DNA of 64,000 bases from Octopus sinensis (taxonomy: Eukaryota): NCBI RefSeq assembly GCF_006345805.1, contig NC_042997.1:130944001-131008000 (forward strand), given 5' to 3'. Position numbers and translations under genes: made by a program. Every line of letters begins with the position of its first letter. Within the stretch, counting starts at the first letter, position 1. Shown here one piece after another: positions 3,310-57,564 of this stretch. Under the pieces are notes generated by a model. It ran no database searches. It was not told the origin of the DNA and worked only from the letters and a program-made list of their open reading frames with translations.

Positions 3310-4697
3310 TCATCATCATCATCATTCAACATCCGTTGTCCATGCTGATATGGGTTGGATGGTTTGACCAGGGCTTGCAAGATGGAAGGCCGCATCAGAC
3401 TCCAGTCTGTTTTGGCATGGTTTCTATGGCTGGATGTCCTTCCTAATGCCAACCATTCTGAAAGTGTAATGGGTGCTTTTATGTGCCACCGGGATGGGTG
3501 CCATTTGCATGACACCAGCATCTGTCATGACTGTGGTTTTACTTGGTTTGATGGCTATTCTCAAGCACAGCGTAACGCCGGTCATTGCCTCTGTGAGTCA
3601 TTGGCGATATGCTATGCTTGAGAAGACCCATCAAGCCAAGTGAAATTGCAGTTGTGGCTGATGCTGATGTCATGTAACTGGCACTCATGCCAGCCACAGT
3701 GAGTCATTGCCAAAGAGTGTCAGTCCTTGCCCAATGAGGCCCAACACTCGAAAAGTGCTTTTACATGCCACTGGCACAAGTGCCATTTGTATGACACCAG
3801 TACCTTCCACAACTGTGATTTTACTTGGCTTAATGGGTCGTCTTCTCAAGCAAAACATAATGTCAAAGGTCTTGGTTATTACCTCAGTGAAGCCCAACAT
3901 TTGAAAGGAGTTTAACCACTTTACCTCCGTGAGGCTCAATGCTTTTTATGTGCCACCTGCATGGGTGCTGGTTACATGACACCAACATCAGCTATGACTG
4001 CGATTTAACTTGGGTTGATGGGTCTTCTGAAGCACAGCATATTGCCAAGATCTCAGTCACTAGTCATTGCGTCTGTGAGGCTCAAAGTTCGGAGATCATG
4101 CTTTACCACCTCGTCCCATGTTTTCCTGGATCAGCCTCTACCACAGGTTCCCTCCACAGCTAGGGATTAGCACTTCTTTACACAACTATCCTAGTCCATA
4201 TGCATCACATGACCATACCAGCACATTCGTCTCTCTTGCACACATCTGATACCTCTTATGCCTAACTTTTCTCTCAAGATACTTACACTCTGTTGAACAT
4301 GCACACTGACATTGCACATCAAGCGAAGCATATTGGCTGCATTTCTTTCAAGCCCAAACATGTCCTTGGCTGTCATAGCCCATATTTCACTGCCATATAG
4401 TATAGCTGTTCGCACACAGGCATCTTATGTTTAACTTTTCTCTCAGTGCACTTACACTCTGTCATGTATGCACACTGACATTACACATCCAGTGCATCAT
4501 ACTAGCTTCATTTCTTTCAAGCCTATGCATGCCCTCAGCAGTCATGGCCCATGTTTCACTGGCATGTAGCACGGCAGTTTGCACACATGCATCATACAGT
4601 CTACCTTTCACCCGGAGCAAGAGGCCCTTAGTTGCCAGCAGAGGTAGGAGCTCCCTGAACTTTACCCAAGCTATTCTTATTCTAGCTGCTACACTCT
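3310..4697 (-). mobile_element. Degenerate PHD-RTE family LINE 3' portion with internal duplication
   Basis: ORF remnants (RTAILYGSEIWAMTAKDM...WYGHVMHMD) match the C-terminus of 51062-53038 and occur twice (~4130-4425, ~4425-4697); repeated 3' UTR modules; (CAT)n tail at 3310. Confidence 0.8.
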
Positions 4698-11961: not shown

Positions 11962-13957
11962 GTTTAACCCACAAAGCGCTGGGATTTGTACTTACATAGC
12001 ATGGGCTGCTGAGCACATTTTATGAAAATGAGACTGCCATGCATACATAAAAAACAAAAAATAGTTAAAATATCTTCTTAGTATACAATGATAGTAAGTT
12101 GATAGCGTTTGAATGACATTAGACTCCCAACAAACGCCCATAAATTGAATGCATCTATCTGGGCCACGATCGTGGTCTGTCGACCGCTGCCTGACGGCCA
12201 CGATCGTGACCCGTCGCGCTTTATGTGTTAAAGTCAGGCGGTATTTCAATGTGTCTGTAAGTGCGTGTACATAGGAAGTGAGTAGTTATATCCACGTGCC
12301 AGTTTATGTGGGTGTATAGATGGATGGGATAGTGCTATACAGTAAGCTGGGTGTGTACAAGTGTAGTGTAATATGGAGTGAATGTATGAGGTCGAAACGC
12401 AACGTAGTAGGGTGGTGTTCGATTATCTTGACTAATTCTTGACGATTATCTTAACAATTCCGAAGGTGTGGAAGAGCAACTGAGGCAGAAAATAACACAC
12501 GCACACACATACATAAAAATGTAAGTAGGCGAGCATGTGTGTACATACATCGAAATACAATATAAACACTTCATAAGATTTATTCTAAGCATTTACATGG
12601 TAATTTCGCATGCTTCAGATACTGAAATGAGCCAGACGAATTATTTCCGGTGAATTAAGTTTGAATGAAGCCAACTAGTCAACCAAAACTTTCTATTAAT
12701 CTATCAGTATATTTGTTTTATATGTGTGTGACATGATTTATGATACAACTAGAAAGATTAATAAAGTTTCTGAATTTGAAAGCAAAACTAGTCTCCCTCA
12801 CCATCACCACCTTCGCCTCTCCCACAATTAGGAAAAACAAAAACTAATTATAATGAGTCATTAAAGCACATCGGGTCTTGAATGATTATGCTGTTGAACT
12901 GTCAATGTTTCCCTTTCAAAATGATTTTCTTCTCAATTACCAAAGCTATGAATGCGTGTGTGTGTGAAGAAAGAGAGGGCGAGTCAGGTATTTCAATGTG
13001 GAATATTTATGTAATTAAATTGCAGAATAGTTATTTTATATATATAATTGAAAAAAGGTTCCGATACTATGTATGTGTAGGAAGAACCCATTAAGGTAAA
13101 CTTAAATGTTAGTAAATTTTGTATTCTGTTATAAACCACAGACCTTTGCGTGTTCGCTCGGCCTGTTAGAAACAGCAGCTAAATTTTCATCGCATCTTTT
13201 CAGCTCTCTCAATTAAGGAAAGGCACTCTATCTACAATTCAAAGACATCTAAAATGTCTTTGACCATAGGATGTTCAATCAAGGTTGGCCTGGGTTAAAC
13301 AAGGACACGTCGAGCCAATGTAGGGGCTCGACCTGCTAATTCCAACCAAATTTCCCACAATCCATATCCTAGTATCTTAAATAAGGAAAGAACACAGACA
13401 CTGCATGCATATACCTATAAAAGAGGAGATAGACTTTGATCCCGAATCTATATGATAGGGGTTGACATGGGTTTAAGCATCAACAACACCAATTTGACTG
13501 ACACTTTCGTTAGAAGCGGCACAAAATGCCTCAAAGACTTTCTTAACAGTTCTCTTTAACTTCAGTTCATAAATAAATAAATATCCTCAAATAAAACTCA
13601 CATAGCATATCAAACACAATTACATTTAAGTTTTAGAATAAATAGTTCAACACTTTAACAAAAGAACATACGCCTACCGCTCGATAATCGATCCCTGTTA
13701 GACGACAAATGTTGTTACTATTTGTGCGACAAGATTGAAGTATACTATACTATGTACTACTGACACCTCACTATCTGAAATAAGTAAATTCGAGAGAAAC
13801 AACAAAACATTATTCTAATATCGAGGTATATCTATATATGTGAGTATCAAAACAGGTTCCGGGTGAAGGTCTTATTGTTTTTTACCCACCAAAGAAATAT
13901 AAACAATAAGTTTCAGGTGGAATGCAAACAGGAAATATAAATTAAAGTTTCACTTAC

Positions 13958-14614
13958 CCCAAAAAGACCATTTTGCAAACCAAATGGAATTGGTGTGAGC
14001 CTAGCCAAAGCGATGACTTTGTATCCCTGGGGTCCTTCCACAACTTTAATGACAGCCTCTAGTTTTTTACTGTAAAATCTCACGGTTATACATCGACAGC
14101 AGGTCCTCAAAACTAAATAAGCAGTTGATACACCGACAGCCCCACATGTAAGTACAACAAAGATGCCACGAAGGAAACCGTATACGTAACCTGTGGTTAA
14201 CAACAGTAGAAAGTATCCCCAGGCAATGGGGAAGCTGACAAGTGTGTACATACATAGAAAGGCTAAGTAACTGACAATTGCATCTGTATGTTCCAGCCAT
14301 AACAACATGTCTTTAACATAACTCTTGAAAAATATCAGCAGCAAACAGATTATTGAAATAACTGTCAATGAAACGATGGACATATGACCACAATTTGTGG
14401 CCGAAGGGTCGCTGTAAAAACTATCTTCAAGAACTGACTGTCCACTGTTGAGATTTAGGGAATGACGCGGAGAAGACGCCCCAGAAGAAGCAGAGGAGTT
14501 TGTCATCAATGAAGATTTACAAGGTGTTAGATTCTGCATCTTCGACATCTCCGAACTTCCAGGCTGCTGAGAAAAGAAAACTTTTTCCAGCGAAGATAAA
14601 TCTCCGAATATCAT
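13958..14614 (-). CDS. TMEM64: First coding exon of transmembrane protein 64-like (DedA/VTT, SNARE_assoc domain)
   Basis: ATG at 14614; Ser-rich N-terminus, hydrophobic helices, VSFPIAWGY and VIALARLTPIPFGLQNGLFG, matching the recalled TMEM64 motif LARLTPIPFGLQN; phase-0 donor GGG|GTAAGT at 13958/13957 (219 codons). Downstream exons were not found in the window. Confidence 0.9.
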
Positions 14615-17069: not shown

Positions 17070-17479
17070 ACCAGCGTTGCCTTACTGGCACTTGTGCTCC
17101 ATGCCAGTAGGGTGCTAAGAGCACCATCCAAGCGTGATCGTTGCCAGAGTGGCTAATCTGGCTTCCGTGCCGGTGGCAAGTAAAAGGTACCATTTGAGCG
17201 TGATCGTTACCAGCGGCACCTTACTGGCACCTGTGCCGGTGGCATGTGTAAAAAGATTCGAGCGAGGTCGTTGCCAGTACCACCTGACTGGCCCCCGTGC
17301 CGGTGGCACATAAAAGCACCCACTACACTCTCGGAGTGGTTGGCTTTAGGAAGGGCATCCAGCTGTAGAAACTCTGCCAGATCAGATTGGAGCCTAGTGC
17401 AGCCATCTGGTTCGCCAGTCCTCAGTCAAATTGTCCAATCCATGCTAGCATGGAAAGCAGATGTTAAACGATGATGATG
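17070..17479 (+). mobile_element. PHD-RTE family 3' tail with ~4 repeat units
   Basis: Highly similar to 2153-2593; (GAT)n tail. Confidence 0.85.
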
Positions 17480-35799: not shown

Positions 35800-36130
35800 C
35801 ATCATCGTCGTTTTACCCCTCAATTTTCTATGCTTACAAGTGTGAAACGGAGGTTATTGAGGCAGATTTTCAATAGCTGGATGCCCTTCCCAACCAGAGT
35901 GGACTGAGTGCTTTTTACGTGGCACCAGCACAGGCGAGGTCAGTTTTGGCATGATTTTAATAGCTGGATGCCCTTTCAAATGCCAACCACTTTACAGTGT
36001 AGACTGGGTGCTTTTTACGTGACATCAGCACAGGCGAGGTCAGTTTTGCCAAGGTTTTAATAGCTGGATGCCCTTCCAAATGCCATCCACTTTACAGTGT
36101 GGACTGGGTGCTTTTTAAGAGGCACCTGCA
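35800..36130 (-). mobile_element. RTE-family 3' tail with a triplicated ~90-bp terminal module
   Basis: tagctggatgccct...gactg.gtgcttttta occurs three times in tandem. Confidence 0.7.
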
Positions 36131-38596
36131 CTGGCAGGGTCACCGAGTAAGTTTGCAAGACAAAGAATCTTTGAGAGTGGGGGAGGCATTGGAGGAAGTG
36201 ATCTTGTGTCAGATGATGAAAGTTTAGAGTGTGACAGAGAGACAAACAGGTGTCTTGCTGAAGAAGGGGTACATGGTTACCCGGCTAGAGAGAGAGAGGG
36301 AGAGAAAGTTAACAAAAATGAGGACAGAAACGGGTATCCTGCTGTAAAGGAGATACATGGTTACCCTGCAAGAGGGAAGAGCAAGAGATACACAAACTCA
36401 TACAATGAACATCTTTCAGTTCCAATCAACTGAATCCACTCATGGCTCTGGTAACCTAGGTGGAATAGGGAGTGGTTGGAGACCATGCGGTTGTTAGCCT
36501 CAAATTGCCAGGTCTGGTCGGTGTTTGTGAGAGATGCAGCATTGAGGATGAATGAAGCCAGCTCAACCCACCCCGGGTGAATGCTGTTTCAAGACAAGAG
36601 GGTTTGTAGGGGAAAACACTTGCCTGAGGTGCCTTGCCTTAGGACTGAACCAGAAACCATGTGGTTGGGAAGAAAACTTCTTAACCACCCAGCCACCCCT
36701 GCAACTACAGAAACTCAGTAAATAATTACTGAAGTCTTTTATTGAAGTCTTGTAGTCATCCATGTAATGCTGTAGTTGTACCATTAAATAATCGAACTCC
36801 TACATAGAATGTTGCTTCATTTAATAACCCAGCTTATGTGACCATGTAGTTGAGTTACATGACCTAGCAAGTGTGTCAGGCTTACCATATCTTAATCACA
36901 GAAATCTTATATTTTTTCCTTCCTTTTACAATGCAATTGATCTTTAACATACTCCTACTTTCAAAATCAAGCCAACTCTGCATAGATTAGTTTTCAAGCT
37001 CCCGGTGATTGAATCTGAATTAATTTCTAAACTCATGTTGCTTTATTATGGATGAGTTTTAGACCTGTGATACTGGGACATGGATCAATTTTTAAATTCA
37101 TTTTGAGTTTGATCACTTTTGTGCATTAGGTGTAATGCAAATTCATTGTCATTTAGTATATCTGAACCGTGTACAGATATAATCCAAAACTATGTTAAAA
37201 TTGCCGCACCTCGACCACTGGAATGTTATAGTTCCCCCTTTCACAGTGTACTTGACCTCTGACACACTCCTGTTTCAAACTCTTTATCTATTGATTTATG
37301 GAGTTCCAATTGTGCCTGGAACTATTTTCCCAACTAATGGTGCTTTGGCAGGGATTATCTTGAAACTCATGTTGTTTAGGCATGGGTTAGCTTCAAACTC
37401 CAGTGTATTATTACTGGGCATCCTTACAATGTAAAATTTTATTTGTCATTCAGTATTTCTTAACTTAGTCAACATTACAGTAAGCCCAGTGAGTGTTTGC
37501 TCAAGTCGTTTATTGAAGTCTCACAGTAAAGTATTCATCCAAATAATGTTGTAGTCACATGTGGATCTTTAGCTCTAGAAGCATTATCTAATTGTATAAT
37601 CACACACCCAGATTGAACTGCTAGCCTGGATTTATTCTGTTTGGCTGTCACTTTTCAATTTCTGCAACTTTTGTTCCAATTGATTTCATATATGATGTGT
37701 TGATGTAGTTTTATATGGTAATTATTGACATGAAATTCATTTTTACTATAAATCAATCTATAAAGAGTTAATAGCTTTTAAAGTTAGAAAATTTGGGGTA
37801 ACTTTTTTAGCCAATCAAAAGCCACAAACATATAGGTGTCTGTTTCCATAATAAAAAACCAAGCTGCTTACCCATGTAGTAATTTTTCGTTTATTAAATG
37901 CTTAAAACACATGAGATATGAGGTGATCCTCAAATGTGCTAAAAACAATAAGCTAAATAGGCCTTGAATCATGCACAATTTTTGTTTTTGCATAATTGTA
38001 TTCCTGTGTGCAGAATACAAATTCACAAAATTTTTCTGAAAATTCCAAAAAAATAAACAAGTTATGAGAGGTTATAATAGCATGCATAAAGCAGAATTCT
38101 ACCAATATTTCATTTGTTTACAGTGAAAATGACAGCTTCCAATTCTTGTTTTCTGACTGGGTAAAAATAATCAAACTTTAAACCTCTGTAACTTTTTAAA
38201 AAAATTTTTTAGAAAAAGTGGATTAGCCCCCGAAATTTAGCATGGAAACTTACCTCAATACATCAGATTTTAAAATTTTCACTAAACTTTAAAATTTCCA
38301 CAGGTGCAAGCCAAAAAGAAAAGATCCACTAGTCCTGTTAAACAGTCTGGTTCATGTGCCCTTCAGGTTGAGTAACATGACAGAAAATAATGTGGATGAC
38401 AGTAAATATTTTGGATGTGAACCCTTTTAATACCAGTAGTAAACTTTAAGTGTATTTGAACATGTATATCTGAGCTGAGAAAAATAAGGTATCTTTCATT
38501 TTAGAAATTGATAGGTGCATCAGCTTATATTACATTACAGCTTTGAGCTTAGGTATTAAGCAATTTGTTTTCATATTGGCTTTTAGTTACCTTTCT

Positions 38597-40320: not shown

Positions 40321-40870
40321 ATCATCATCATCATCATCGTTTAACATCTGCTTTCCATGCTAGCATGGGTTGGACGATTTTGACTGAGGGCTGGTGAACC
40401 AGATGGCTGTGCCAGGCTCCAATCTTGATCTGGCAGAGTTTCTACAGCTGGATGCCCTTTCTAACGCCAACCACTCCGAGAGTGTAGTGGGTGCTTTTAC
40501 GTGCCACTGGCACGGGGGCCAGTCAGGTGGTACTGGCAACGACCTCGCTCGAATCTTTTTACACAGGCCACCGGCACAGGTGCCAGTAAGTGTCTAAACT
40601 AGAAACAATTATAGGGTTACCTAATCACTATCCTTTTTATTGAGACTTAAGCACTGTGGTACAGGTGCCACATAAAAAGCACTGGTGATGATGCCATGCA
40701 AAAAGCACCCTGTGCACTCCGTAACTTGTTGGCGTTAGGAAGGGTATCCAGCTGTAGAAACCAAGCTAGAATAGAATAAGGAATCTGGTGCAGCCCCTAG
40801 CCTTGTCAGCTCCTGTCAAGCTGTCCAACCCATGTCAGCATGTAAAACAGATGTTAAATTATGATGATGA
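40321..40870. mobile_element. Two RTE-family 3' tails in inverted orientation (40321-40590 minus; 40650-40870 plus)
   Basis: (CAT)n at the left end and (GAT)n at the right; the gttggcgttaggaaggg.atccagctgtagaaac block is present on both strands. Confidence 0.8.
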
Positions 40871-41236
40871 AGCTAATTGATGCTGCCACCATCATTATTT
40901 TTTCACTAAGATCCCCACTCTAGCCCCACCATTATTGTGTGATCTGTGAGGTCTTATTCAATAATTTTGCTTCATATTTTTATATATCTCAGCCTCAGTG
41001 CTTTCCCAGCTTGTCAAAAAATTAGTTGAAATATTTGAAGTTTCTATTCAGAATATTTTTCATTAATTTATGCAGATAATATTGAAATGTAATATTTTCC
41101 AGGTCTGGCTCCTGAAAATGCAAAGCAACTAACTGCTGATGAAATGCTGCGACTAAAATTATATTCTGTGATCAAAGGTAGATATCAATTTCTTCGCAAA
41201 GCAAAAACAGGCAAGAAGTTTATTTGAGCAAACAAT

Positions 41237-42580
41237 ATGGAAATGGATTTGAAATTAAAAATATTTAGCTGTGGAATATGTAAAGAGACCTTTTCTTTGA
41301 CTAAAGAACTAAGTGCACACATGAAAATACATTCAAAAGAAATAAAGCCTTTTAAATGTAAAATATGTGGGAAAAGTTTTACAAAGAATTTCCTCTTAAA
41401 AGTTCACACACAAAAACACAATGGAAAGCAGTTTCATTGTAAAGTATGCAATAAAGGATTTTCAGAAAACTATAACTTGAAAAATCATATGCGACTTCAT
41501 ACTGGTGAGAAACCTTTTCATTGCAACGTATGTAACGAAAAGTTTTCAACAAATTACTTTTTTAAAAAGCACATGATATTGCATACTGGAAAAAATCCTT
41601 TCCAATGTAAAATTTGTGATGCAAATTTTTCATCTAATTATCTTCTTAAAAAACATGCCAGAATTCATCCGAGTGAGAAAGTATTTGCTTGTGAAATATG
41701 TGGTAAAGACTTTTTTACAAGTTACTTGTTAAAAAGGCATGTCAGGGCACATACTGGGGAGAAACCATTTCGCTGTGAAATTTGCGACAAACTATTTTCT
41801 ACAGGGTATCTTTTAAAAAGACATCTTTGGGGACACACAGGAGAGAGACATTTTTACTGTGAGATTTGTGGAAAAGATTTTGCTTTTTGTGAATCATTAA
41901 AACGACACTTGAAAACACATTATGATGAGGAACGATACTCCTGTGAGATATGTGGGAATGATTTTGCTACAAATTATTATTTAAAATGCCACTTGCGGAC
42001 ACATTCTGGAGAAAAACCTTTCCACTGTGAAACATGTGGGAAAGATTTCTCATTTGGTCAGTCTTTAGCAAGACACATTCGAATACATACTGGTGAAAGA
42101 CCGTTCCTTTGTTCAACATGTGGTAAAGATTTTTCTCAATATTCTCAACTAACGAAGCATACAAGAACTCATACTGGTGAGAAACCATTCCATTGTGAAA
42201 TATGTGGTAAGGATTATTCTGGAAACTGTGATTTAAGGAATCATATGATGGTTCACACCGGTGAGAAACGGTATAATTGCAGGTTTTGTGGAGAAAAGCT
42301 GTCTACATACTATTACTTGAAAAAACATATTAGATCACACACAGGAGAGAAACCTTTCCGTTGTACAATTTGTGGAGAAACCTTCTCCTCTAATTACTTT
42401 TTGAAGAGACATAGAATGGTACATACTGGAGAGGAAAGCTTTGTCTGCAATGTATGTGGTAAAGAATTTTCATATAATGAATCATTAAGAAGGCACAAGA
42501 AAACTCATAATGGAAAGGAAGCACTTGCTAATAAAGATTCTTGTAAAAGTTTATCTGTGAAAGAGAATATGAAGGTTTGA
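41237..42580 (+). CDS. C2H2 zinc-finger protein, 15 tandem fingers, no effector domain (447 aa)
   Basis: Fifteen CxxC-x12-HxxxH units, many with TGEKPF linkers; intact ORF; in-frame TGA at 41225-41227 upstream of the ATG; splice acceptor at 41102/41103. Confidence 0.95.
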   Translation: MEMDLKLKIFSCGICKETFSLTKELSAHMKIHSKEIKPFKCKICGKSFTKNFLLKVHTQKHNGKQFHCKVCNKGFSENYNLKNHMRLHTGEKPFHCNVCNEKFSTNYFFKKHMILHTGKNPFQCKICDANFSSNYLLKKHARIHPSEKVFACEICGKDFFTSYLLKRHVRAHTGEKPFRCEICDKLFSTGYLLKRHLWGHTGERHFYCEICGKDFAFCESLKRHLKTHYDEERYSCEICGNDFATNYYLKCHLRTHSGEKPFHCETCGKDFSFGQSLARHIRIHTGERPFLCSTCGKDFSQYSQLTKHTRTHTGEKPFHCEICGKDYSGNCDLRNHMMVHTGEKRYNCRFCGEKLSTYYYLKKHIRSHTGEKPFRCTICGETFSSNYFLKRHRMVHTGEESFVCNVCGKEFSYNESLRRHKKTHNGKEALANKDSCKSLSVKENMKV

Positions 42581-47265: not shown

Positions 47266-49488
47266 ATTAATTATCTAAATGAAAATTCTCCTGGATAGAG
47301 GAGAGAAATATTACACTTTCATTTTCCTATCAACGATTTGCAATGAGTGAATGGCAACAAAAACCATCCTGATGGTGATTTGTGGTAACACAAAATGTCA
47401 CAGCCAGAAATAAAAGTTTTACATTTTGTATAGCAATTCTCTTGACCAATAAATAACTATAGAATTGATTTGAAAGAATATAAAATTGAGATACAGTACT
47501 CCCATTCTGTAGTTTATATATGATAAATTTCCAGTATACTGTCACAGCATTTTATTTATATGCAAAGAATCATAGATTTCCCTTACAAAACCACTTGAAA
47601 ATATTCAACAGGTGTATTATGAAACATACTAAATTTGTTTTTTTCTGCAAAATAAACTTGTACAATAGGGGTGTGCCTTATATGCTGGCAAGTTTGGTAT
47701 GTGACAAATTCCAACCATGATCATCACACATAGACCAATGTTGATAATGGCAATGCCAGTGGGTATGTGGTAATTAAGAGAACATTTTAGATGGAAATAA
47801 GTACAATCTATTTTATAATGGAATATTTACCATTAAGAGGGCTAAGAATAAGTTTGTTCCCAGAGTGTTTGATTGTATAGACTCATCTAAACTCTTTCAG
47901 ATATCATGATTATTGTGTTTCTACATTTCTAGATATACTTGTTATGTTGTATTTCTGAGAACTATACTTAAGTTGTTTCATTCTTCTTCAGTGGACCAAA
48001 ATGTCTGAAAGTTCGAGGAGGGGAATAGGAACTGTGAGACTGGTCATCATCATTATCATTTAATGTCCATGTTGTATGTTAGCATGGGTTGGACCATTCA
48101 ACAGGCTCTGACTAGCCTGAGAACTGTGTTAATGTCCAGTGTCTGCTTTAATAAAGTTTCTAGGGTTGGATGCCCTGGTGGTTTTTTTTTTTTTTTTTTT
48201 GTTAGCACCAACACTAGTAAGTCATCAAGTGACTTGCAAAACAAAACTCCTTATCTGAGTGGGGATGCAGTATTGAGGGAGGTCGCTTTCTACCAGATGT
48301 AGAGTGGCTGAAGTAGGGAACAGGAACAGGAGCTGGGTGTCTGTTTAGCTTGAGAAGGACAGGAGCAGGTGTCCAGTTAAGAAGAAATATATTGCTACTT
48401 CAGCAGGGAAGGTAGAAAGATCAGGAGATGAAGTATCGGGCACCACCCTCTTTCACATCACAATTGCATTTATATTAGTGAAGCAATGTAAGTAGAAGTT
48501 TGAATCATGACAATTGTTGAGAATATTTATCCCCAACAAGTTTGGGTTAGTGGAGGTGCATGACCTGGTGGTTAGAGGTATTGCACTTGTGATCTGGGCA
48601 TTACATTGTATTCATTTCACATTGCCCCTCACCACTGTAAATGAGTAACAGTGTGATGGATTGACATCCTGTTCAGAGGGAATCTTGTAATCGCAGTCAC
48701 TTATATGCCAAGGAGTCCTAGAACTCAAGATAGCAATTATTTGTTAAGTTTAGACTCTTGGCTCTAATTTTCAAGCGTTTCTAGCTCAGACTAAAGCCTA
48801 AAGCTTTAACATCCAACCTAAAGCCTTACTTCATGTATCAGTTAGGTGTTCCATAAAAACTTTGGAGTTCTATTAAAAAAATTTTTTAGGAACAAAGAAT
48901 TTGTTCAACTAACTTGTATATGTATATACAAAATCCACATCGTATACAAATATTAATACTTACAGATTCATGAAAATACACATACAAACACCAACATATA
49001 TACTATGCCCTCTTTTACTTCAGTTATTAAATTGATGATCAGTTTTCCTTTTTTAGAGACTTCATATATCCATTACTAACCAGTTCTATTCAAATAATTC
49101 AACTGCTATTTTATATTCTTTTAATAAAAACCTCTATTTTATTAACTCTTTGTTTTGTCATTCATTCCATTCAATGTCACTGCTGCTGTCAACCCCAGAT
49201 TCAATATAAATAGAAGAATTTGTCTTTGTACATAGGTCTGCTTTATCAGGGCCAGCTTTAATTTAAACAACTCCAGATTTGTTCTACATTAAACTGATAG
49301 CTGTGATGATCAAGTTCACTGGTGTTAGATAAACATTGACTAAGTGATTCTTTCACCACTATTTTGGTAAGTATGAAGTCTGTGCTTTACTGAAGCGGTT
49401 GAATATTGTTGAAACATATCCAGAGTTGTCTCCTGTCATTACCGAAAGGATTAAGATAATTTTCCTCATTAAGCCACACGTGACTGTA

Positions 49489-50734
49489 GGTCATAACACC
49501 TGGTCAATACTGAAATGCATTGCTAGTATATACATATAAAAAACAGGCTGTGTGTGGTGCGTATATTCTTTATGGATTCGAAAACTGAGTTGCTGATGTT
49601 GACGAATGAGGTATCAAAAGATTCAGTAATCTTTTGGCTACCAAATGAAATATGTTTTTTTGCACAACTCTTTTTTTTTACTACAAAAATAACCTTAAAA
49701 ATGAGGTTGGGTCACACAATTTTGAGGTCATTTTCAGGCAGTATTTGGATTTGCTTCTAATCTACATTGCCAATTTTAATGTTTACGGTATCAAAAAATG
49801 CAGCAATATACAAGGAGTGTAATGAGTGCGTTTGTGATGCACAAAACCCTATTTGTCAACAGAAAATGACCAAAAAACATGCTTTTTTGGAACAATTATT
49901 GGCACATTTTCTGTCACTAATGGCCTTTGTGCCACAACTAAACTGCCAATGTGAACCTCTTCACTATTCTATGATTACATAATGTCTTTGAAGTATTTTG
50001 ATATCATTTCTTTGCACAAAGCCCTATTTTCCAACAGAAAATTGACTAATGAACATCCATGTTTCTGACAATTGTGATCGCTTCTGGCATTACTACCAAA
50101 AGCAATTTGTCTATGTAGATTTTCTATGTTGCAAATGACTCAGGAATGTCAAACAAGCATTCTCAGCTTTAAATTCAATAAACTTTCTCCAAGGATTAAG
50201 CACAATAAACACCTATGTTCATTCAAGTGTGGTAAAGACGTGAAGCAATGACTTAAACCTTTTGAGCTTTTTTGCCTTTAACATTTTCCTCTTTATTCAA
50301 GTCACTTTATGCAAAGTTGCTTATCGTTATTAGTATATATTCATGCCTATTATTCATTCCATAAGCTGCAGAGTTCATAAGGATTTTGCTACAATCTCTG
50401 TACTTTTCACAGTGGTTGAGCATGTACTATAACACGGGTGGTGCAATGGTAAACAAATGTCTGACCTGATAACCTCAGTGAAAACAACAACAACACCATG
50501 CATCTGTGTGAGAGCAAATTAAGATCACATACACACGTGAATCCACCCATAGTGGATCTCCCTTCATTGGTCAGGATGCATAATGTGTTCATTGATTGGT
50601 ACAATTTCAAATTAAATTTTCCTTATCAGAAATGTACTGCAATACCAGTTGGTCATAGTGTTATTATCAACAACCCAGGCAACGCTGGATTGCACTGTGT
50701 GGTGCGTATGTTCCACTTGAACCTGAAAATTGAG

Positions 50735-50735
<1 letters not shown>
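49489..50735 (+). mobile_element. Probable head-to-tail Helitron-like unit
   Basis: Two homologous junctions (49489-49590 and 50651-50735), each with a cc.gg(t)caa..ctg hairpin relic followed by tgtggtgcgtat.ttc...gaaaa.tgagt; the first includes CTAG|T. Confidence 0.45.
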
Positions 50736-50791
<56 letters not shown>

Positions 50792-50795
<4 letters not shown>

Positions 50796-50965
50796 TAATA
50801 GTTATCACCAAGCTAACATAGCAGTCCAGGAAAATAGGAAGGTTATAATGGACACAGGTTCGTGTGTCACATAGCTAGAACCGATGGCCTCTTGGAGCTA
50901 ATGAACGGCAACATTCGTTCTATTTTCCTGAACTGCCATGTTAGCATGCTGATAACTATTAATAT
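50792..50965. repeat. Foldback element with ~48-bp imperfect inverted arms
   Basis: atattaatagttatca...gctaacat.gcagt.caggaaaatag, with its reverse complement ending at 50965. Confidence 0.75.
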
Positions 50966-51061
50966 CCAGTACTGCTGCCATTGTCTCCTTTAGAGAGACT
51001 TAGAAATATTAATATATATATATAGACTTGGAAGCACTGGAAGAATGGTGGTAGCAGGGAA

Positions 51062-53038
51062 TTGTATCAGACTGCTAAAAGGGAAGCTAGGAGACAGGTC
51101 TATCTAGCCAGAGGGGAAGCAGATAAGAAAAAATTTGCCAATGTTCTGCGCCGTGAGGACCAAAGACTGGAGGTGTTTCGCGTTGCAAGACAGTGTGTGA
51201 GAGAGAATTGTGATGTGGTGGGAGAGAAGTGTGTTCGCATGGAAGATGGTTCACTTGCGCTAAACGAGGATGCAAAGAGAGAGGCTTGGAGATGCCACTA
51301 TGAAAGGTTGCTGAATAAAGAAAATGAATGGGATAAAGAGAGTCTGCCGAACGTTGACCCAACAGAGGGACCAGCTATCAGGGTTGATAGTTCCTTAGTA
51401 GCTAAGGCAATTAGAAGCATGAAGACAGGGAAAGCCCCAGGCCCATCAGGTATCACTGCAGAGATGCTGAAAATATCTGGTAGTGTCGGCTATAGCCTAG
51501 TCACCTGTATAGTTAATCAGGTGATACATGAAGGAGTCATACCCAATGACTGGTGTAGCAGCATAATAGTCAACTGCTACAAAGGTAAAGGTGATGCCCT
51601 AGATACAAATAATTACAGAGGTATCAAGCTGTTGGATCAGGTGATGAAGGTTACAGAGAGGGTCATAAGCCAACTAATTAGAGAGAGAGTTAGTTTAGAT
51701 GAGATGCAGTTTGGTTTCGTGCCAGGGAAAAGTACCACTGATGCTATATTCCTGGTAAGGCAGCTGCAGGAGAAATACCTAGCCAAAGATAAGGCCCTGT
51801 ACCTGGCTTTTGTTGACATGGAGAAAGCCTTCGACAGGGTCCCCCGATCCCTCATATGGTGGTCAATGAGGAAACTAGGAATAGAAGAATGGTTAGTGAG
51901 AGCTGTGCAAGCCATGTACAGGGACGCTGCTAGTAAGGTGAGGGTTGGAAATGAGTACAGTGAAGAATTCCGGGTAGAGGTAGGGGTCCACCAAGGCTCA
52001 GTCCTCAGCCCCCTCCTATTTATCATAGTCCTCCAGGCAATAACGGAGGAATTCAAGACAGGATGCCCCTGGGAGCTCCTCTATACTGATGACCTTGCTC
52101 TAATTGCTGAGTCATTATCAGAACTGGAGAAGAAGTTTCAGGTGTGGAAGCATGGTTTAGAATCGAAGGGCCTTAGAGTCAACCTAGCTAAAACCAAAGT
52201 CGTAATAAGTAGGAAGGTAGACAAATCACAAACGCCTTCAGGTAGATGGCCCTGCTCGATCTGTAGAAAAGGTGTAGGTAGAAACTCTATAAGATGCACC
52301 AAGTGTAAGCTATGGACACATAAGAGGTGCAGCAATGTCATAGGAAGGCTAACTAGGAAGATGGTTTTTGTATGTGGCAGATGCTCGGGAGCATTAACCT
52401 CTGAAAATCTGCAGAAAACAACTTCCGTCACTTTCCAGGGGGAAAAACTAGAAGTGGTTGATAGCTTCCGTTATCTTGGTGACCAAGTCAGTAGTGGGGG
52501 TGGGTGTGCTGAAAGTGTAACGGCTAGAGTAAGAATAGCCTGGGCAAAGTTTAGGGAGCTCTTACCTCTGTTGGTGACTAAAGGCCTCTCGCTCAGAGTA
52601 AAAGGCAGACTGTATGATGCATGTGTACGAACAGCCATGCTACATGGCAGTGAAACATGGGCCGTGACTGCTGAGGACATGCGTAAGCTCGCGAGAAATG
52701 AAGCTAGTATGCTCCGTTGGATGTGTAATGTCAGTGTTCATAGTCGACAGAGTGTAAGTACCTTGAGAGAAAAGTTGGACCTAAGAGGAATCAGATGTTG
52801 TGTGCAAGAGAGACGATTGCGCTGGTATGGTCATGTGGTGAGAATGGATGAAGATAGGTGTGTGAAAAAGTGCCACACCCTGGCAGTTGAGGGGACCTGT
52901 GGAAGAGGTAGACCCAGGAAAACCTGGGTCGAGGTGGTGAAGCACGACCTTCGAACTCTAGGTCTCACCAAGGAAATGACCAGAGACCGAGACCTATGGA
53001 AGTATGCTGTGCGTGAGAAGACCCGGCAAGACCAGTGA
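51062..53038 (+). CDS. LINE reverse transcriptase (N-terminally truncated) with an inserted C4HC3 PHD-type finger
   Basis: KAPGPSG, NYRGIKLL, QFGFVPG, FVDMEKAFDRV, GVHQGSVLSP, LYTDD, FRYLG, RLRWYGHV, RGRPRKTW; the listed start is TTG and is not a genuine initiator. Confidence 0.9.
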   Translation: MYQTAKREARRQVYLARGEADKKKFANVLRREDQRLEVFRVARQCVRENCDVVGEKCVRMEDGSLALNEDAKREAWRCHYERLLNKENEWDKESLPNVDPTEGPAIRVDSSLVAKAIRSMKTGKAPGPSGITAEMLKISGSVGYSLVTCIVNQVIHEGVIPNDWCSSIIVNCYKGKGDALDTNNYRGIKLLDQVMKVTERVISQLIRERVSLDEMQFGFVPGKSTTDAIFLVRQLQEKYLAKDKALYLAFVDMEKAFDRVPRSLIWWSMRKLGIEEWLVRAVQAMYRDAASKVRVGNEYSEEFRVEVGVHQGSVLSPLLFIIVLQAITEEFKTGCPWELLYTDDLALIAESLSELEKKFQVWKHGLESKGLRVNLAKTKVVISRKVDKSQTPSGRWPCSICRKGVGRNSIRCTKCKLWTHKRCSNVIGRLTRKMVFVCGRCSGALTSENLQKTTSVTFQGEKLEVVDSFRYLGDQVSSGGGCAESVTARVRIAWAKFRELLPLLVTKGLSLRVKGRLYDACVRTAMLHGSETWAVTAEDMRKLARNEASMLRWMCNVSVHSRQSVSTLREKLDLRGIRCCVQERRLRWYGHVVRMDEDRCVKKCHTLAVEGTCGRGRPRKTWVEVVKHDLRTLGLTKEMTRDRDLWKYAVREKTRQDQ

Positions 53039-53085
53039 GAACAATCAAAATCAAATCATATATCAGAAAGCAGGGGTTAAGTGAC

Positions 53086-54492
53086 CCATCTGTTCGTGTC
53101 CGCTGTCAGCCTCGTCTGGCACCTGTGCCGGTGATACGTAAAAGCACCATTCGCTCATGGCCGTTTGCCAGCTCTGCCTGGCCCCGTGTCGGTGGCACGT
53201 AAAAGCACCATCCGTTTGTGTTCGTTGCCAGCCTCGCCTGGCTCTGTGCCGGTGACACGTAAAAGCACTGTCCGTTCGTGGCCGTTGGCCAGCTCTGTCT
53301 GGCCCCGTGTCGGTGGCACGTAAAAGCACCATCCGTCCGTGTCCATTGCCAGCCTCGGCTGGCCCCCGTGCCGGTGACACGTAAAAGCACCGTCCGCTCG
53401 TGGCCGTTTGCCAGCTCTGTCTGGCAACCGTGTCGGTGGCACGTAAAAGCACCATCTGTTCACGTCCGTTGCCAGCCTCGGCTGGCCCCCGTGCCGGTGA
53501 CACGTAAAAGCACCATCCGTTCGTGGCCGTTTGCCAGCTCTGTCTGGCCCCGTGTCGGTGGCACGTAAAAGCACCATCCGTCCGTGTCCGTTGCCAGCCT
53601 CGGCTGGCCCCCGTGCCGGTGACACGTAAAAGCACCGTCCGTTCGTGGCCGGTTGCCAGCTCTGTCTGGCCCCGTTCGGTGGCACGTAAAAGCACCATCC
53701 GTCCGTGTCCATTGCCAGCCTCGGCTGGCCCCCGTGCCGGTGACACGTAAAAGCACCGTCCGCTCGTGGCCGTTTGCCAGCTCTGTCTGGCAACCGTGTC
53801 GGTGGCACGTAAAAGCACCATCTGTTCACGTCCGTTGCCAGCCTCGGCTGGCCCCCGTGCCGGTGACACGTAAAAGCACCATCCGTTCGTGGCCGTTTGC
53901 CAGCTCTGTCTGGCCCCGTGTCGGTGGCACGTAAAAGCACCATCCGTCTGTGTCCGTTGCCAGCCTCGGCTGGCCCCCGTGCCGGTGACACGTAAAAGCA
54001 CCGTCCGTTCGTGGCCGGTTGCCAGCTCTGTCTGGCCCCGTGTCGGTGGCACGTAAAAGCACCATCCGTTCGTGGCCGTTTGCCAGCTCTGTCTGGCCCC
54101 GTGTCGGTGGCACGTAAAAGCACCATCCGTCCATGTCCGTTGCCAGCCTTGGCTGGCCCCCATGCCGGTGACACATAAAAGCACCGTCCGCTCATGGCCG
54201 TTTGCCAGCTCTGTCTGGCAACCGTGTCGGTGGCACGTAAAAGCACCATCCGTTCGTGTCCGTTGCCAGCCTCGGCTGGCCCCCGTGCCGGTGGCACGTA
54301 AAAGCACCGTCCGTTCGTGGCCGGTTGCCAGCTCTGTCTGGCCCCGTGTCGGTGGCACGTAAAAGCACCATCCGTTCGTGTCCGTTGCCAGCATCGCCTG
54401 GCCCCGTGCCGGTGACACGTAAAAGCACCATCCGTTCATGGCCGTTCGCCAGCTCTGTCTGGCACCTGTGCAGGTGGTACGTAAAAAACACC
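53086..54492 (+). repeat. Tandem array of 23 x ~61-bp GC-rich units in the LINE 3' UTR
   Basis: 23 occurrences of the CGTG(C/T)CGGTG(G/A)CACGTAAAAGCACC-type core counted by eye; alternating A/B units; 366-bp higher-order repeat (53341 vs 53707). Confidence 0.95.
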
Positions 54493-54689
54493 CACCACAC
54501 TCACGGAGTGGTTGGCGTTAGGAAGGGCATCCAGCCGTAGAAACACTGCCAGATCTGACTGGGCCTGACGAAGCCTTCCAGCTTCACAGACCCCAGTTGA
54601 CCCGTCCAACCCATGCTAGCATGGAAAACGGACGCTAAACGATTCTTTTTGCTGTGTAAACCTGACACCTAGCTGTCTTTTTGGCTACC

Positions 54690-55160
54690 TGATATAGGTG
54701 ATAGAAGTCATATGACTGCAATAACTGGCATATACATGTGCATGCATATGGAGCAGGGTGATATCGTGTGTAGTGTTGGTGAATTTCAGGAAGCATGGAG
54801 GTTTTAAAGGACGCAATATCTCAGCAGCTAACAACTGATGCAGGTAGTTTGTTCCATGCTTCAGCAAGTGTGAAAGTCATTGGAGCTGTGCTGTTTTCTG
54901 ACTTTGTAGGCATGCCTACATGTGTTAGACATATGGAGCTCAAAAAGGTGCTTAAGGTGGTTGTTGGCACAATGGTTAATAATTTTGTGGGTGTTTACCA
55001 AGTCAGTTGCCAGATGGTGGAGCTTCACTGTATGCTCAGGAAGCTAGGCGTTCAGAGTATGGTAGATACTTGATAGAGGGTATTCTCTGAACAGTTTCCA
55101 GGTGATGCAAATTCCAAATGTGGCCACACCACAGCCATATATAGCTGACAAAGGTCTTCT
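54690..55160 (-). mobile_element. CR1/L2-group LINE 3' fragment
   Basis: Minus strand WNKLPASVVSC..ASFKTSMLPEIHQHYT, same family as 557-790. Confidence 0.6.
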
Positions 55161-55286
55161 CTATAGTAGAAGACACTTACCCAAGGTGCTGTGTAGTAGG
55201 AGAGAACTTGAAACCATGTGATTGCAAAGCAAGCTTCTTAACCACACAGCAATGCTTGTACTTATGTTGTTAAAGGTTTAAGAGGA

Positions 55287-55508
55287 ACTCTTTACTCTTT
55301 TACTTGTTTCAGTCATTTGACTGTGGCCATGCTGGAGCACCGCCTTTAGTCGAGCAAATTGATCCCAGGACTTATTCTTTGTAAGCGTAGTACTTATTCT
55401 ATCGGTCTCTTTTGCCAAACCACTAAGTTACGGGGACGTAAACATAGCATCGGTTGTCAAGCGATGTTGGTGGGACAAACACAGACACACAAACATATAC
55501 ACACACAC

Positions 55509-55563
<55 letters not shown>

Positions 55564-55728
55564 TACGACAGGCTCCTTTCAGTTTCCATCTACCAAAACC
55601 ACTCACAAAGCTTTGGTCGGCCCGAGGCTATAGTAGAAGACACTTGCCCAAAGTGCCTCTCAGTGGGACTGAACCCAGAACCATGTGGTTCGTAAGCAAG
55701 CTACTTACCACACAGCCACTCCTACGCC
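55287..55728 (-). mobile_element. SINE family A, full length
   Basis: Matches the other copies. Confidence 0.9.
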
Positions 55729-55881
55729 TGTTTGTCATTGGTTCTCATATGAGACAGAACTAAAACAAATTAAGACATGCTCCATCATAAATTTATTAAG
55801 GCAGCTTGTTAAAGCAAAGATGAACATGCTAATATTTTACAAGCATGGATAACAATGTTTGAGGAATTGGTTGTTGTTTAA

Positions 55882-56101
55882 CCCTTTAGCATTCAGATTA
55901 CTCTGTCAAATGTAAAGCCTGTTTAATCACATGGTTTTAAATTAATTGTACAGCATCTTGTAACTCTGAGATTTTGATGATGTCCCTGTTTATTTTTAGA
56001 ATGACTTTGTAGGGTAGGTGTGAGAGGTCAGAGCTGGCTGGTTTGAGCATATAACAGGAAGGCAATTTTAGCCTGGTATGACCAGTTTAAACACTAAAGG
56101 G
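55882..56101. mobile_element. piggyBac-like MITE (second family)
   Basis: TTAA|ccctttag ... ctaaaggg|TTAA. Confidence 0.7.
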
Positions 56102-56647: not shown

Positions 56648-56960
56648 TTAATGTCAGGTTTCCTATGCTGGTATGGGTTTGTTAGTTTGACTGAGTTTGA
56701 TGATTTGAAGAACTGCATCTTGCATCAATGTCTACTTTAGCTTGGTTTCTATGGCTGGATGTCCTTCCTAATGTCAACCATTTTACAGTGTAGTGGGTGC
56801 TTTTTATGTGCCACCGGCACAGGAGCCAGAGGAGGCTAGCAACGGCCACGATCGGTTGGTGCTTTTTACATGTCACCGACACGGATGCCAGTCAGGTGGC
56901 ACTGGCATCTACCACGTTCAGATGGTGCTTTTTACGTGCCACTGACACAGGTATCACAAC
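56600..56960 (-). mobile_element. RTE-family 3' tail with repeat units and a long (CAT)n
   Basis: Three ggtgctttt..gtg.cac units plus the terminal block. Confidence 0.75.
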
Positions 56961-57564
56961 TACAATTTCCATTTGATTTTTATTTTGATGTTGGTGTTGA
57001 TGTACTTGACTCAATAGGTCTCCTCAAGCACAACGGTCACTCTACAATCCAAGGTTAGCACTTCTTGAACTTAAACTTACACAACTGTACTTTGGCCTTT
57101 TGGAACACTTTCAAATGCACCTTTTTTGTAAAATATAGTAATGTGTAGTAATTTATTACATGGACTATTGGGATATCTCTGAATACTAAATGTTTGTATG
57201 GTATTTGATGCAAACATATTTATTCAAGTGTTTTCTGCCCAATGGCCAGATAAAGGATAGCTCAGTATTGTCAGCTCATAAAACATTGAGTTATCTATTC
57301 CTTTTAAATACATTTCAATATGAATATTTGATCATTGTTGTTATACATCAACAGAGAACATTTTCTCCCTTCAGGCAATCACTGGTGTTTTGGCCTCATT
57401 GTGTGTCTCTTCAGTAGAAGCTTCTCCACACTGATGTCTCTCACAAGGGCCTGAGCTCTTATAAGAATCAGCAAACAAATTATTTGTTAGAGCATGCAGA
57501 TGTCTGCCAAACATAGTAATCCATAAGATGCAAGTAGAATAGTGAAAATTCAAACAATAACATA

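Follow-up and report, generated by a model that had tools for sequence, protein, structure and literature searches.

A variable tandem array with RNA-pairing potential in the 3' UTR of an octopus RTE-type LINE

We analysed a 64,000-nucleotide stretch of the Octopus sinensis genome (NC_042997.1, positions 130,944,001 to 131,008,000, forward strand), called the window below. On its plus strand lies a LINE copy whose 5'-truncated ORF (51026-53038; RVT_1, E=3.9e-31) encodes a reverse transcriptase (RT) with a PHD-like Cys/His insert, in a frame of 670 aa that holds no endonuclease in the window copy. Behind the RT stop codon (53036-53038), the 3' UTR starts with an A-rich spacer (53039-53087) that comparison of copies identified as specific to the subfamily. 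An array of alternating A-type and B-type units follows (53088-54492), in which the terminal unit (54430-54492) has a broken palindrome. Next come a short hairpin with a conserved GGAAGGGCATCC domain (54493-54552), identified by pattern search and recurring in the element L362 and in SINE-like loci, and a 3'-terminal region (54553-54643) that ends in a TGCTAGCA hairpin and a single GAT. Elsewhere the window carries a 450-aa frame with tandem C2H2 zinc fingers (41228-42580, plus strand) and a 233-aa frame whose match to the VTT domain is weak and falls short of the curated cut-off (13913-14614, minus strand).

A sequence-only reading of the window had described 23 tandem units of ~61 nt, about 50 bp past the RT stop, and both TRF and splitting at the linker bear this out. 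TRF places the array at 53086-54486 (period 61, 23.0 copies, 81% matches), and a period of 122 gives 90% matches, reflecting the alternation of A and B units. Cutting at the A-rich linker yields 23 units of 60-63 nt, the first beginning ~50 nt downstream of the stop codon and the last ending at 54492. Each unit runs from linker to a 5-bp hairpin to a 25-nt module, which itself consists of a palindromic 15-mer (CGTGYC-GGT-GRCACG), an A-rich linker and CACC. Stop-free minus-strand frames also span the array (53063-54517 and 53155-54435), probably as a property of the repeat; the longer, the one of the two that was scanned, matched no Pfam family.

Relatives of the window ORF are single-ORF proteins of ~1050 aa that combine an endonuclease (PF03372), an RT (PF00078) and a PHD domain (PF00628). 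Such frames, of 1019-1160 aa, are open in 27 of 150 scored loci, consistent with the single ORF of RTE elements, and three copies are full length (L410, L415 and L417). Truncation at the 5' end is frequent, with the start of the endonuclease region absent from 17 of 20 copies, and sister copies end in (GAT)n, a microsatellite tail of the RTE kind. We call the element RTE-type, a name that rests on this architecture. The catalytic motif reads YADD in 18 of the 19 copies that reach it and YTDD only in the window copy. Beginning after a TA run at 51026, with no endonuclease and with YTDD, the window copy is by its sequence a dead one. Runs of (TA)n directly precede the start of many 5'-truncated copies (window 51005-51025, L268, L274, L294, L312, L314). 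The three full-length copies share a long pyrimidine-rich leader, ~1300 nt before the ORF, with ~150-nt duplications of its own and possible splice signals immediately upstream of the ORF. Two further array copies (L359 and L370) have their 5' part in the opposite orientation to the remainder. Both the tail motif and RT relatives were absent from the viral contigs searched; in genome contigs, a first scan found no RT relatives and a second found eight loci. The contigs of L361-L364, which hold animal-type RTE elements, are listed under bacterial genome bins, probably through host contamination.

The sequence-only reading knew of no description of such an array, and we likewise found no account of array or module in the literature searched, which left most subscription journals and Repbase outside its scope. 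The nearest described case is the repeat-filled 3' UTR of RTE-2_OV from Octopus vulgaris, whose repeats are presented, in the part of the source available, only as a microsatellite with no structure (PMC9115989). Identity of the two elements was considered and rejected: all three primers tried, with up to 3 mismatches allowed, fail to match the full-length copy L415. RTE-2_OV is thus a different family.

Each unit had been proposed to fold as a hairpin followed by an H-type pseudoknot, and the pairing potential of single units agrees with this. Stem 1 (CGTG/CACG) and stem 2 (GGTG/CACC) cross with feasible loops and can both form entirely from Watson-Crick pairs in 18 of 23 units; units 1, 3 and 23 need G-U pairs, and stem 1 is damaged in units 10 and 18. 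The hairpin, which had been said to persist, is present in its 5-bp form in all 23 units and extends to 6 bp in the eight with loop CCTCGG or CCTTGG. We gauged chance levels from 20,000 dinucleotide shuffles per unit type. A 4+4-bp H-type geometry arose in 3.2-3.5% of shuffles, and in 0.07% with at least four A in loop 3, so the knot geometry is uncommon; the 5-bp hairpin, which arose in 34-36%, is not, and knot and hairpin occurred together in 2%. In a nested fold, single units were no more stable than their shuffles (z +0.56 and -1.64). The variant copies cited by the sequence-only reading do exist, at 35931 (minus strand), 29658 (plus) and 40659 (plus), but the extra C-G pair that they were said to add to stem 2 is a one-sided change whose G is the commonest letter at that position, and the copy at 40659 has a broken stem 1. 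A sister family known from three loci only (L351:3178-3243 and L332) has TAACAAA as loop 3, and one of its unit types alters the 5' strand of stem 2 such that a shifted TTTG/CAAA pairing is possible.

Luteoviral knots such as that of BWYV have a 2-nt loop 1, a 1-nt loop 2 and an A-rich loop 3, and the octopus module is alike, with loop lengths of 2/1/6-7. Short stems are a further likeness to these frameshift pseudoknots (PMC6007934, in the part of the source available). The octopus module differs in lying in a 3' UTR with no slippery site or frame, and in having a 4-bp stem 1 with stronger competitors.

These features speak for the view that every unit folds as hairpin plus pseudoknot and that the multimer was selected, as a set of protein avidity sites or as a nuclease block. 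Also in its favour, variation within the otherwise constant block falls on loops 1, 2 and 3, including both loop-1 letters and the single loop-2 letter, and in birds and turtles R2 proteins bind a 3' UTR pseudoknot through their zinc finger, according to the available part of PMC12180492. We nevertheless judge a selected pseudoknot multimer distinctly unlikely.

Unit number proved highly variable. Among the 30 best of 40 scored RT-end copies, drawn from 4098 candidates, arrays range from 5 to 23 units with a median of 11, the longest one sampled being that of the window copy, and the ORFs diverge by 1.4 letters per 300. Nineteen distinct A/B orders occur in these 30 copies; first and last units are constant and the interior shows block duplications and deletions. 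As in a VNTR, then, unit count differs among near-identical copies with fixed ends and a variable interior. Growth in DNA after insertion is also apparent. Genome-wide, one CpG-type variant that disrupts stem 1 has 25 occurrences, 16 of them as singletons and nine in tandem at L290; since the stem-breaking variant is repeated there, the L290 array must have grown in DNA after the mutation, regardless of the stem. Private units repeated within L001 and L019 are further instances of such expansion. Amplification in place of a unit with a broken stem 1 counts against a selected pseudoknot multimer, as does the fixation of units with broken stem 1 or stem 2 in successful families. Array length at any single locus may be an assembly artefact; among the pieces listed from four sequencing runs, all of them short contigs, none crosses the array of the window. 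The count of 23 is incidental rather than characteristic of the element.

Copies with long ORFs speak to the same point. Of 27 loci with a frame of at least 1019 aa among the 150 scored, 26 formed our long-ORF set, and the 27th (L027) has ~6 units. Detected units number 2-4 in 15 of the 26 and 5-7 in six; three copies of the window subfamily have 11-12, and two of another type have 5 and 17. Unit number is thus 3-4, 5-7 or ~11 according to subfamily, sister subfamilies with intact ORFs carrying 3-4 or 5-7, and long-ORF subfamilies with 3-4 units are hard to square with a selected pseudoknot multimer. Short mixed arrays have near-constant length, homogeneous arrays variable length. From the more diverged copies to the youngest, unit number climbs from 1-5 to 10-11, a trend that selection could also produce.

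Neighbouring units offer one another a competing partner. Centred on GGT, the core 15-mer reads as a palindrome, which by prediction lets an A unit pair with the B unit next to it; the two types differ at two mirrored places. Predicted duplex energies are -24.1 kcal/mol for A:B, -20.8 for B:B and -11.9 for A:A. In nested folds of the whole 3' UTR (the L002 copy, and the window copy with 22 of 23 units scored), 0.73-0.79 of strands pair between units, compared with 0.01-0.06 in stem 1 or stem 2. A natural dimer reaches -42.8 kcal/mol (-44.9 in another fold), as against -26.7 to -31.9 for two knots and two hairpins; this advantage of 11-16 kcal/mol per dimer, which again disfavours a pseudoknot in every unit, sets a folding program unable to form pseudoknots beside a knot energy that assumes a loop penalty and leaves out tertiary contacts. 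With several partners competing for one strand, 23 identical knots are argued against, although a local knot could be trapped first during transcription. The terminal unit, whose types have CA or CG as loop-1 letters, shows an inter-unit pairing of 0.00 in both folds. With its palindrome broken it is predicted to pair least with neighbours and to be the best pseudoknot candidate.

The mirrored differences between A and B invite another explanation, that the multimer was selected as a scaffold of inter-unit duplexes, with complementary changes that make A pair best with B. Besides the strength of the A:B duplex, unit order fits: of the 154 A units found across the 30 selected loci, 152 adjoin a B, adjacencies comprise 263 AB/BA, 27 BB and 7 AA, and the order seen most often has five mixed pairs and leaves the terminal unit free. 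A sister family with both palindrome changes together in one unit (4 of 13) also suits it. The complementarity amounts, however, to a single evolutionary event, and duplication of a dimer yields alternation mechanically. On another reading the A of A units would pair in cis with the A-type linker, a T-A pairing available in 194 units. Outside the selected loci, moreover, no B flanks 19 of the 62 A units. To selection for such a scaffold we give little credence.

We next considered whether pairing is under selection at all. A profile run over 1.63 Mb of sequence gave 1474 hits, 1286 of them with a complete core after removal of 188 partial, core-gapped or duplicate ones. Across 20 unit types found in at least three loci, and after CpG-type changes were dropped, variable columns number 6 of 22 in stems and 18 of 32 elsewhere (p=0.052); across 47 types found in at least two loci, they number 7 of 22 and 21 of 32 (p=0.026). 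Derived states of recurrent types fall in stems in 7 of 37 cases, where 15 would be expected (p=0.004), and one-sided stem changes are mostly G-U. Lower variation in stem than in loop columns suggests weak selection on pairing, and on these sequence comparisons weak selection probably acts on the structure of one module.

Covariation gave no such signal. Over 45 representative units the score was 0.156, compared with 0.155 in shuffles, 199 of 500 of which scored as high. Two-sided changes affect none of the four stem-2 pairs in these 45 rows and only the end pair of stem 1 (U-A in 4 of 45); the 6-bp rival hairpin fared no better than the knot. The share of paired cells was 89.4%, as against 87.7% in shuffles (1 of 500 as high). 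The sequence-only reading had named lack of covariation among the grounds for giving up its structural claim, and covariation is indeed lacking, in a test of low power; because the families are closely related, it is weak in both directions. The result, and the lack of any two-sided change in stem 2 in particular, adds to the case against a selected pseudoknot multimer. It also lends something to a wholly neutral account, in which the inverted repeats arose by template switching and constancy reflects recent common descent, as do single units that fold no better than shuffles and terminal-module deletions that appear amplified. Yet the deficit of derived states in stems, together with retention of the module in every long-ORF copy, leaves complete neutrality very unlikely.

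That retention concerns the terminal module, which is kept in 26 of 26 long-ORF copies, a set of about four subfamilies only. Genome-wide, terminal units that lack the 16 nt between two TGGCAC repeats number 2,561; a comparable but non-identical pattern for the intact form matches 14,081. We built a tree from 20 deleted copies, taken from 100 among the matches listed, and 27 intact ones (146 columns, weak support). Deleted and intact labels change seven times on it, compared with 15.5 when shuffled, and two supported nested clades contain deleted copies only. Sources bearing the deletion thus probably kept transposing, with upstream units intact, as far as the tree can tell.

A self-cleaving ribozyme in each unit, one of the functions floated by the sequence-only reading together with a check against Rfam, receives no backing. 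None of 16 Rfam matches (E up to 10, positions 48000-56000) lies inside the array, and Rfam returned nothing relevant on L361, L362 or L364. Nor do 5' ends reveal a cut site: 85 clean ends, left after 92 of 177 candidates were dropped as not clean truncations, fall on 48 positions with a maximum of six at one (bins p=0.053). Ribozymes are known from the 5' ends of RTE elements (PMC5786205, in the part available), but cleavage within the 3' UTR would sever the ORF from its own tail, and we regard this possibility as extremely improbable.

The sequence behind the array has a wider distribution. The 2.72-Gb host genome matches a 30-letter tail pattern exactly at 40,390 places, and 43 letters of the GGAAGGGCATCC domain recur near-identically in the 5' UTR of a second L362 element (L362:3976-4038). 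The domain is also found in SINE-like elements, namely in 120 loci from a metagenome scan (L051-L170), which have no module upstream, and in L270 and L278-L281. Pieces of the RTE 5' UTR have been described as recurring in this way (PMC5786205). Its distribution indicates that the domain is older than the array behind which it sits. Being far more widely conserved than the array, it may be the better target. A consensus fold of 15 motif-chosen rows has a two-sided change in one of seven pairs, and domain plus hairpin match no Rfam family. In the LINE 3' UTR, in the other RTE and in SINE-like elements of other animals alike, a 5-bp hairpin of unrelated sequence precedes the domain. L270 and L278-L281 belong to one SINE-like family that is headed by a tRNA and starts sharply at its 5' end; it has the UTR domain but a different tail.

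The module, by comparison, is restricted to its lineage. L361 and L362, at 47-49% RT protein identity, end soon after the stop codon with no module, and L362 has a similar 3' end directly after its stop. A covariance model of the module found no hits in 88 foreign loci (80 of the 120 SINE-like loci and eight others). Conservation across divergent clade members, as seen at R2 3' ends, is thus missing from L361, L362 and these 88 loci of other animals, a further point against a selected pseudoknot multimer.

A 5'-UTR-type domain beside an array also recalls promoters. Rodent L1 elements carry tandem promoter monomers, and the octopus core could, as a DNA palindrome, be a binding site for a transcription factor dimer, the array acting as enhancer-like monomers: A and B cores alike contain two CGTGYC half-sites around 3 nt, and the adjoining domain sits in the 5' UTR of another RTE. 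Against this, CACC and the separate hairpin are conserved too, and fixed stem changes lean towards G-U-compatible ones. A module copy in the element's own 5' UTR, as a terminal repeat or promoter, was sought and rejected: 28 of 30 endonuclease-bearing loci have none in the 5' region, and the two that do resemble neighbouring tails. We rate a transcription factor site as quite improbable. A promoter scan returned no sites; its models are bacterial and the host is an animal.

Older and sister families preserve earlier states of the repeat. The window includes three units of an older sister family with longer hairpin loops, one of them lacking the 3' strand of stem 2 (17126-17320, plus strand), and three of a sister family in which one unit has both palindrome changes, T and A (56796-56989, minus strand). 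In two older families the duplicated segment is longer: module and UTR domain repeat together with a 100-nt period at 35907-36158 (minus strand; also delimited as 35895-36142), and RT C-terminal coding sequence and module are duplicated as one at 3472-4003 (minus strand). The former arrangement recurs at C19:50367039-50368049 (L217), ~10-fold with a 100-106-nt period behind a pyrimidine-rich stretch, and its family may be a bipartite non-autonomous element. One older family has a single module after the stop codon, preceded by a hairpin that resembles the module itself (three copies). In this same family, 7 of the 18 junctions tested join the module end to RT coding sequence through a shared AAGCAC hexamer, giving ~185-280-nt repeats. 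In all sampled families of the lineage the module is present after the RT stop.

Minisatellites born in transposable elements start by slippage or unequal exchange between 5-10-bp repeats that flank the future unit, followed by expansion and dispersal (PMC6947457, in the part available). The octopus array resembles them in its likely birth between short repeats; it departs from the cases in that part of the source by its conserved, pairing-capable core and by long-ORF copies with subfamily-typical counts (PMC6947457). The tail behind the array invites comparison with bipartite RTE derivatives, which join a 5'-UTR domain to an RTE 3' end in the available part of PMC5786205. The octopus tail has the same two parts, a 5'-UTR-type domain and an RTE 3' end, but fused behind an autonomous ORF. 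Three motifs sought as a check on identity with Kojima's RTE 5'-UTR domain do not occur in the supplement text of that paper, where alignments may be pictures.

Taken together, we favour, as rather probable, an unstable minisatellite in a LINE 3' UTR that is built from a lineage-specific module under modest structural constraint and whose multimer is most likely a by-product. A hypervariable minisatellite would have grown in a young RTE-type LINE subfamily from one 25-nt module by short-repeat slippage. Since relatives whose ORFs are intact have just 3-4 units, and since the repeats would by prediction pair among themselves, extra copies are likely a by-product of slippage. One module likely folds as RNA; copy number is likely incidental and the extra units redundant. 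Two things weigh on the other side: stems persist in internal units, with 18 of 23 units perfect in the window copy, and the terminal module is present in every long-ORF copy (26 of 26). The prediction for internal units is that their palindromes join them in twos by 14-bp helices, forming a chain of branched duplexes in place of 23 pseudoknots. We infer that a single retained module, for which the terminal one is the most plausible candidate, serves as a folding accessory next to the 3'-terminal signal, with a putative role in aiding transcript folding or binding by the element's protein. Where the sequence-only reading preferred a functional multimer to a neutral minisatellite, linkage to the RT, a retained module and constraint on the stems stand; the selected pseudoknot multimer does not.

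By analogy, a single terminal copy may work like the R2 3' UTR pseudoknot. In A-clade R2, the pseudoknot-hinge-stem is single, occupies the last 65 nt, is shared despite divergence and was proven by structure and compensatory mutation, as set out in the available part of PMC12180492. The modelled octopus knot is similar in being a pseudoknot of a non-LTR 3' UTR beside a 3'-terminal stem (PMC12180492). It is unlike the R2 knot in lying at least 150 nt from the end, in being multiplied and lineage-restricted, and in being predicted only.

A more elaborate idea treats the module as switchable: a luteovirus-like knot would form first and then give way to zipping of A and B palindromes between neighbours, the terminal knot staying free, the paired array would package or protect the transcript, and growth from 1 to 11 units would have driven subfamily succession. 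We consider this unlikely, though worth stating. The 3-, 7- and 11-unit subfamilies make it directly testable. If true, it would be the first retrotransposon RNA of tandem modules pairing in trans, and would bear on how RTE proteins choose their RNA.

If the minisatellite explanation that we favour is true, the octopus elements offer a natural series of minisatellite birth within an active LINE lineage, with many marker loci. The series would run from one unit through long duplications and arrays of 3-7 mixed units to ~11 homogeneous, unstable units. It would also warn that a capacity for pairing can be repeated many times over without function being repeated with it.
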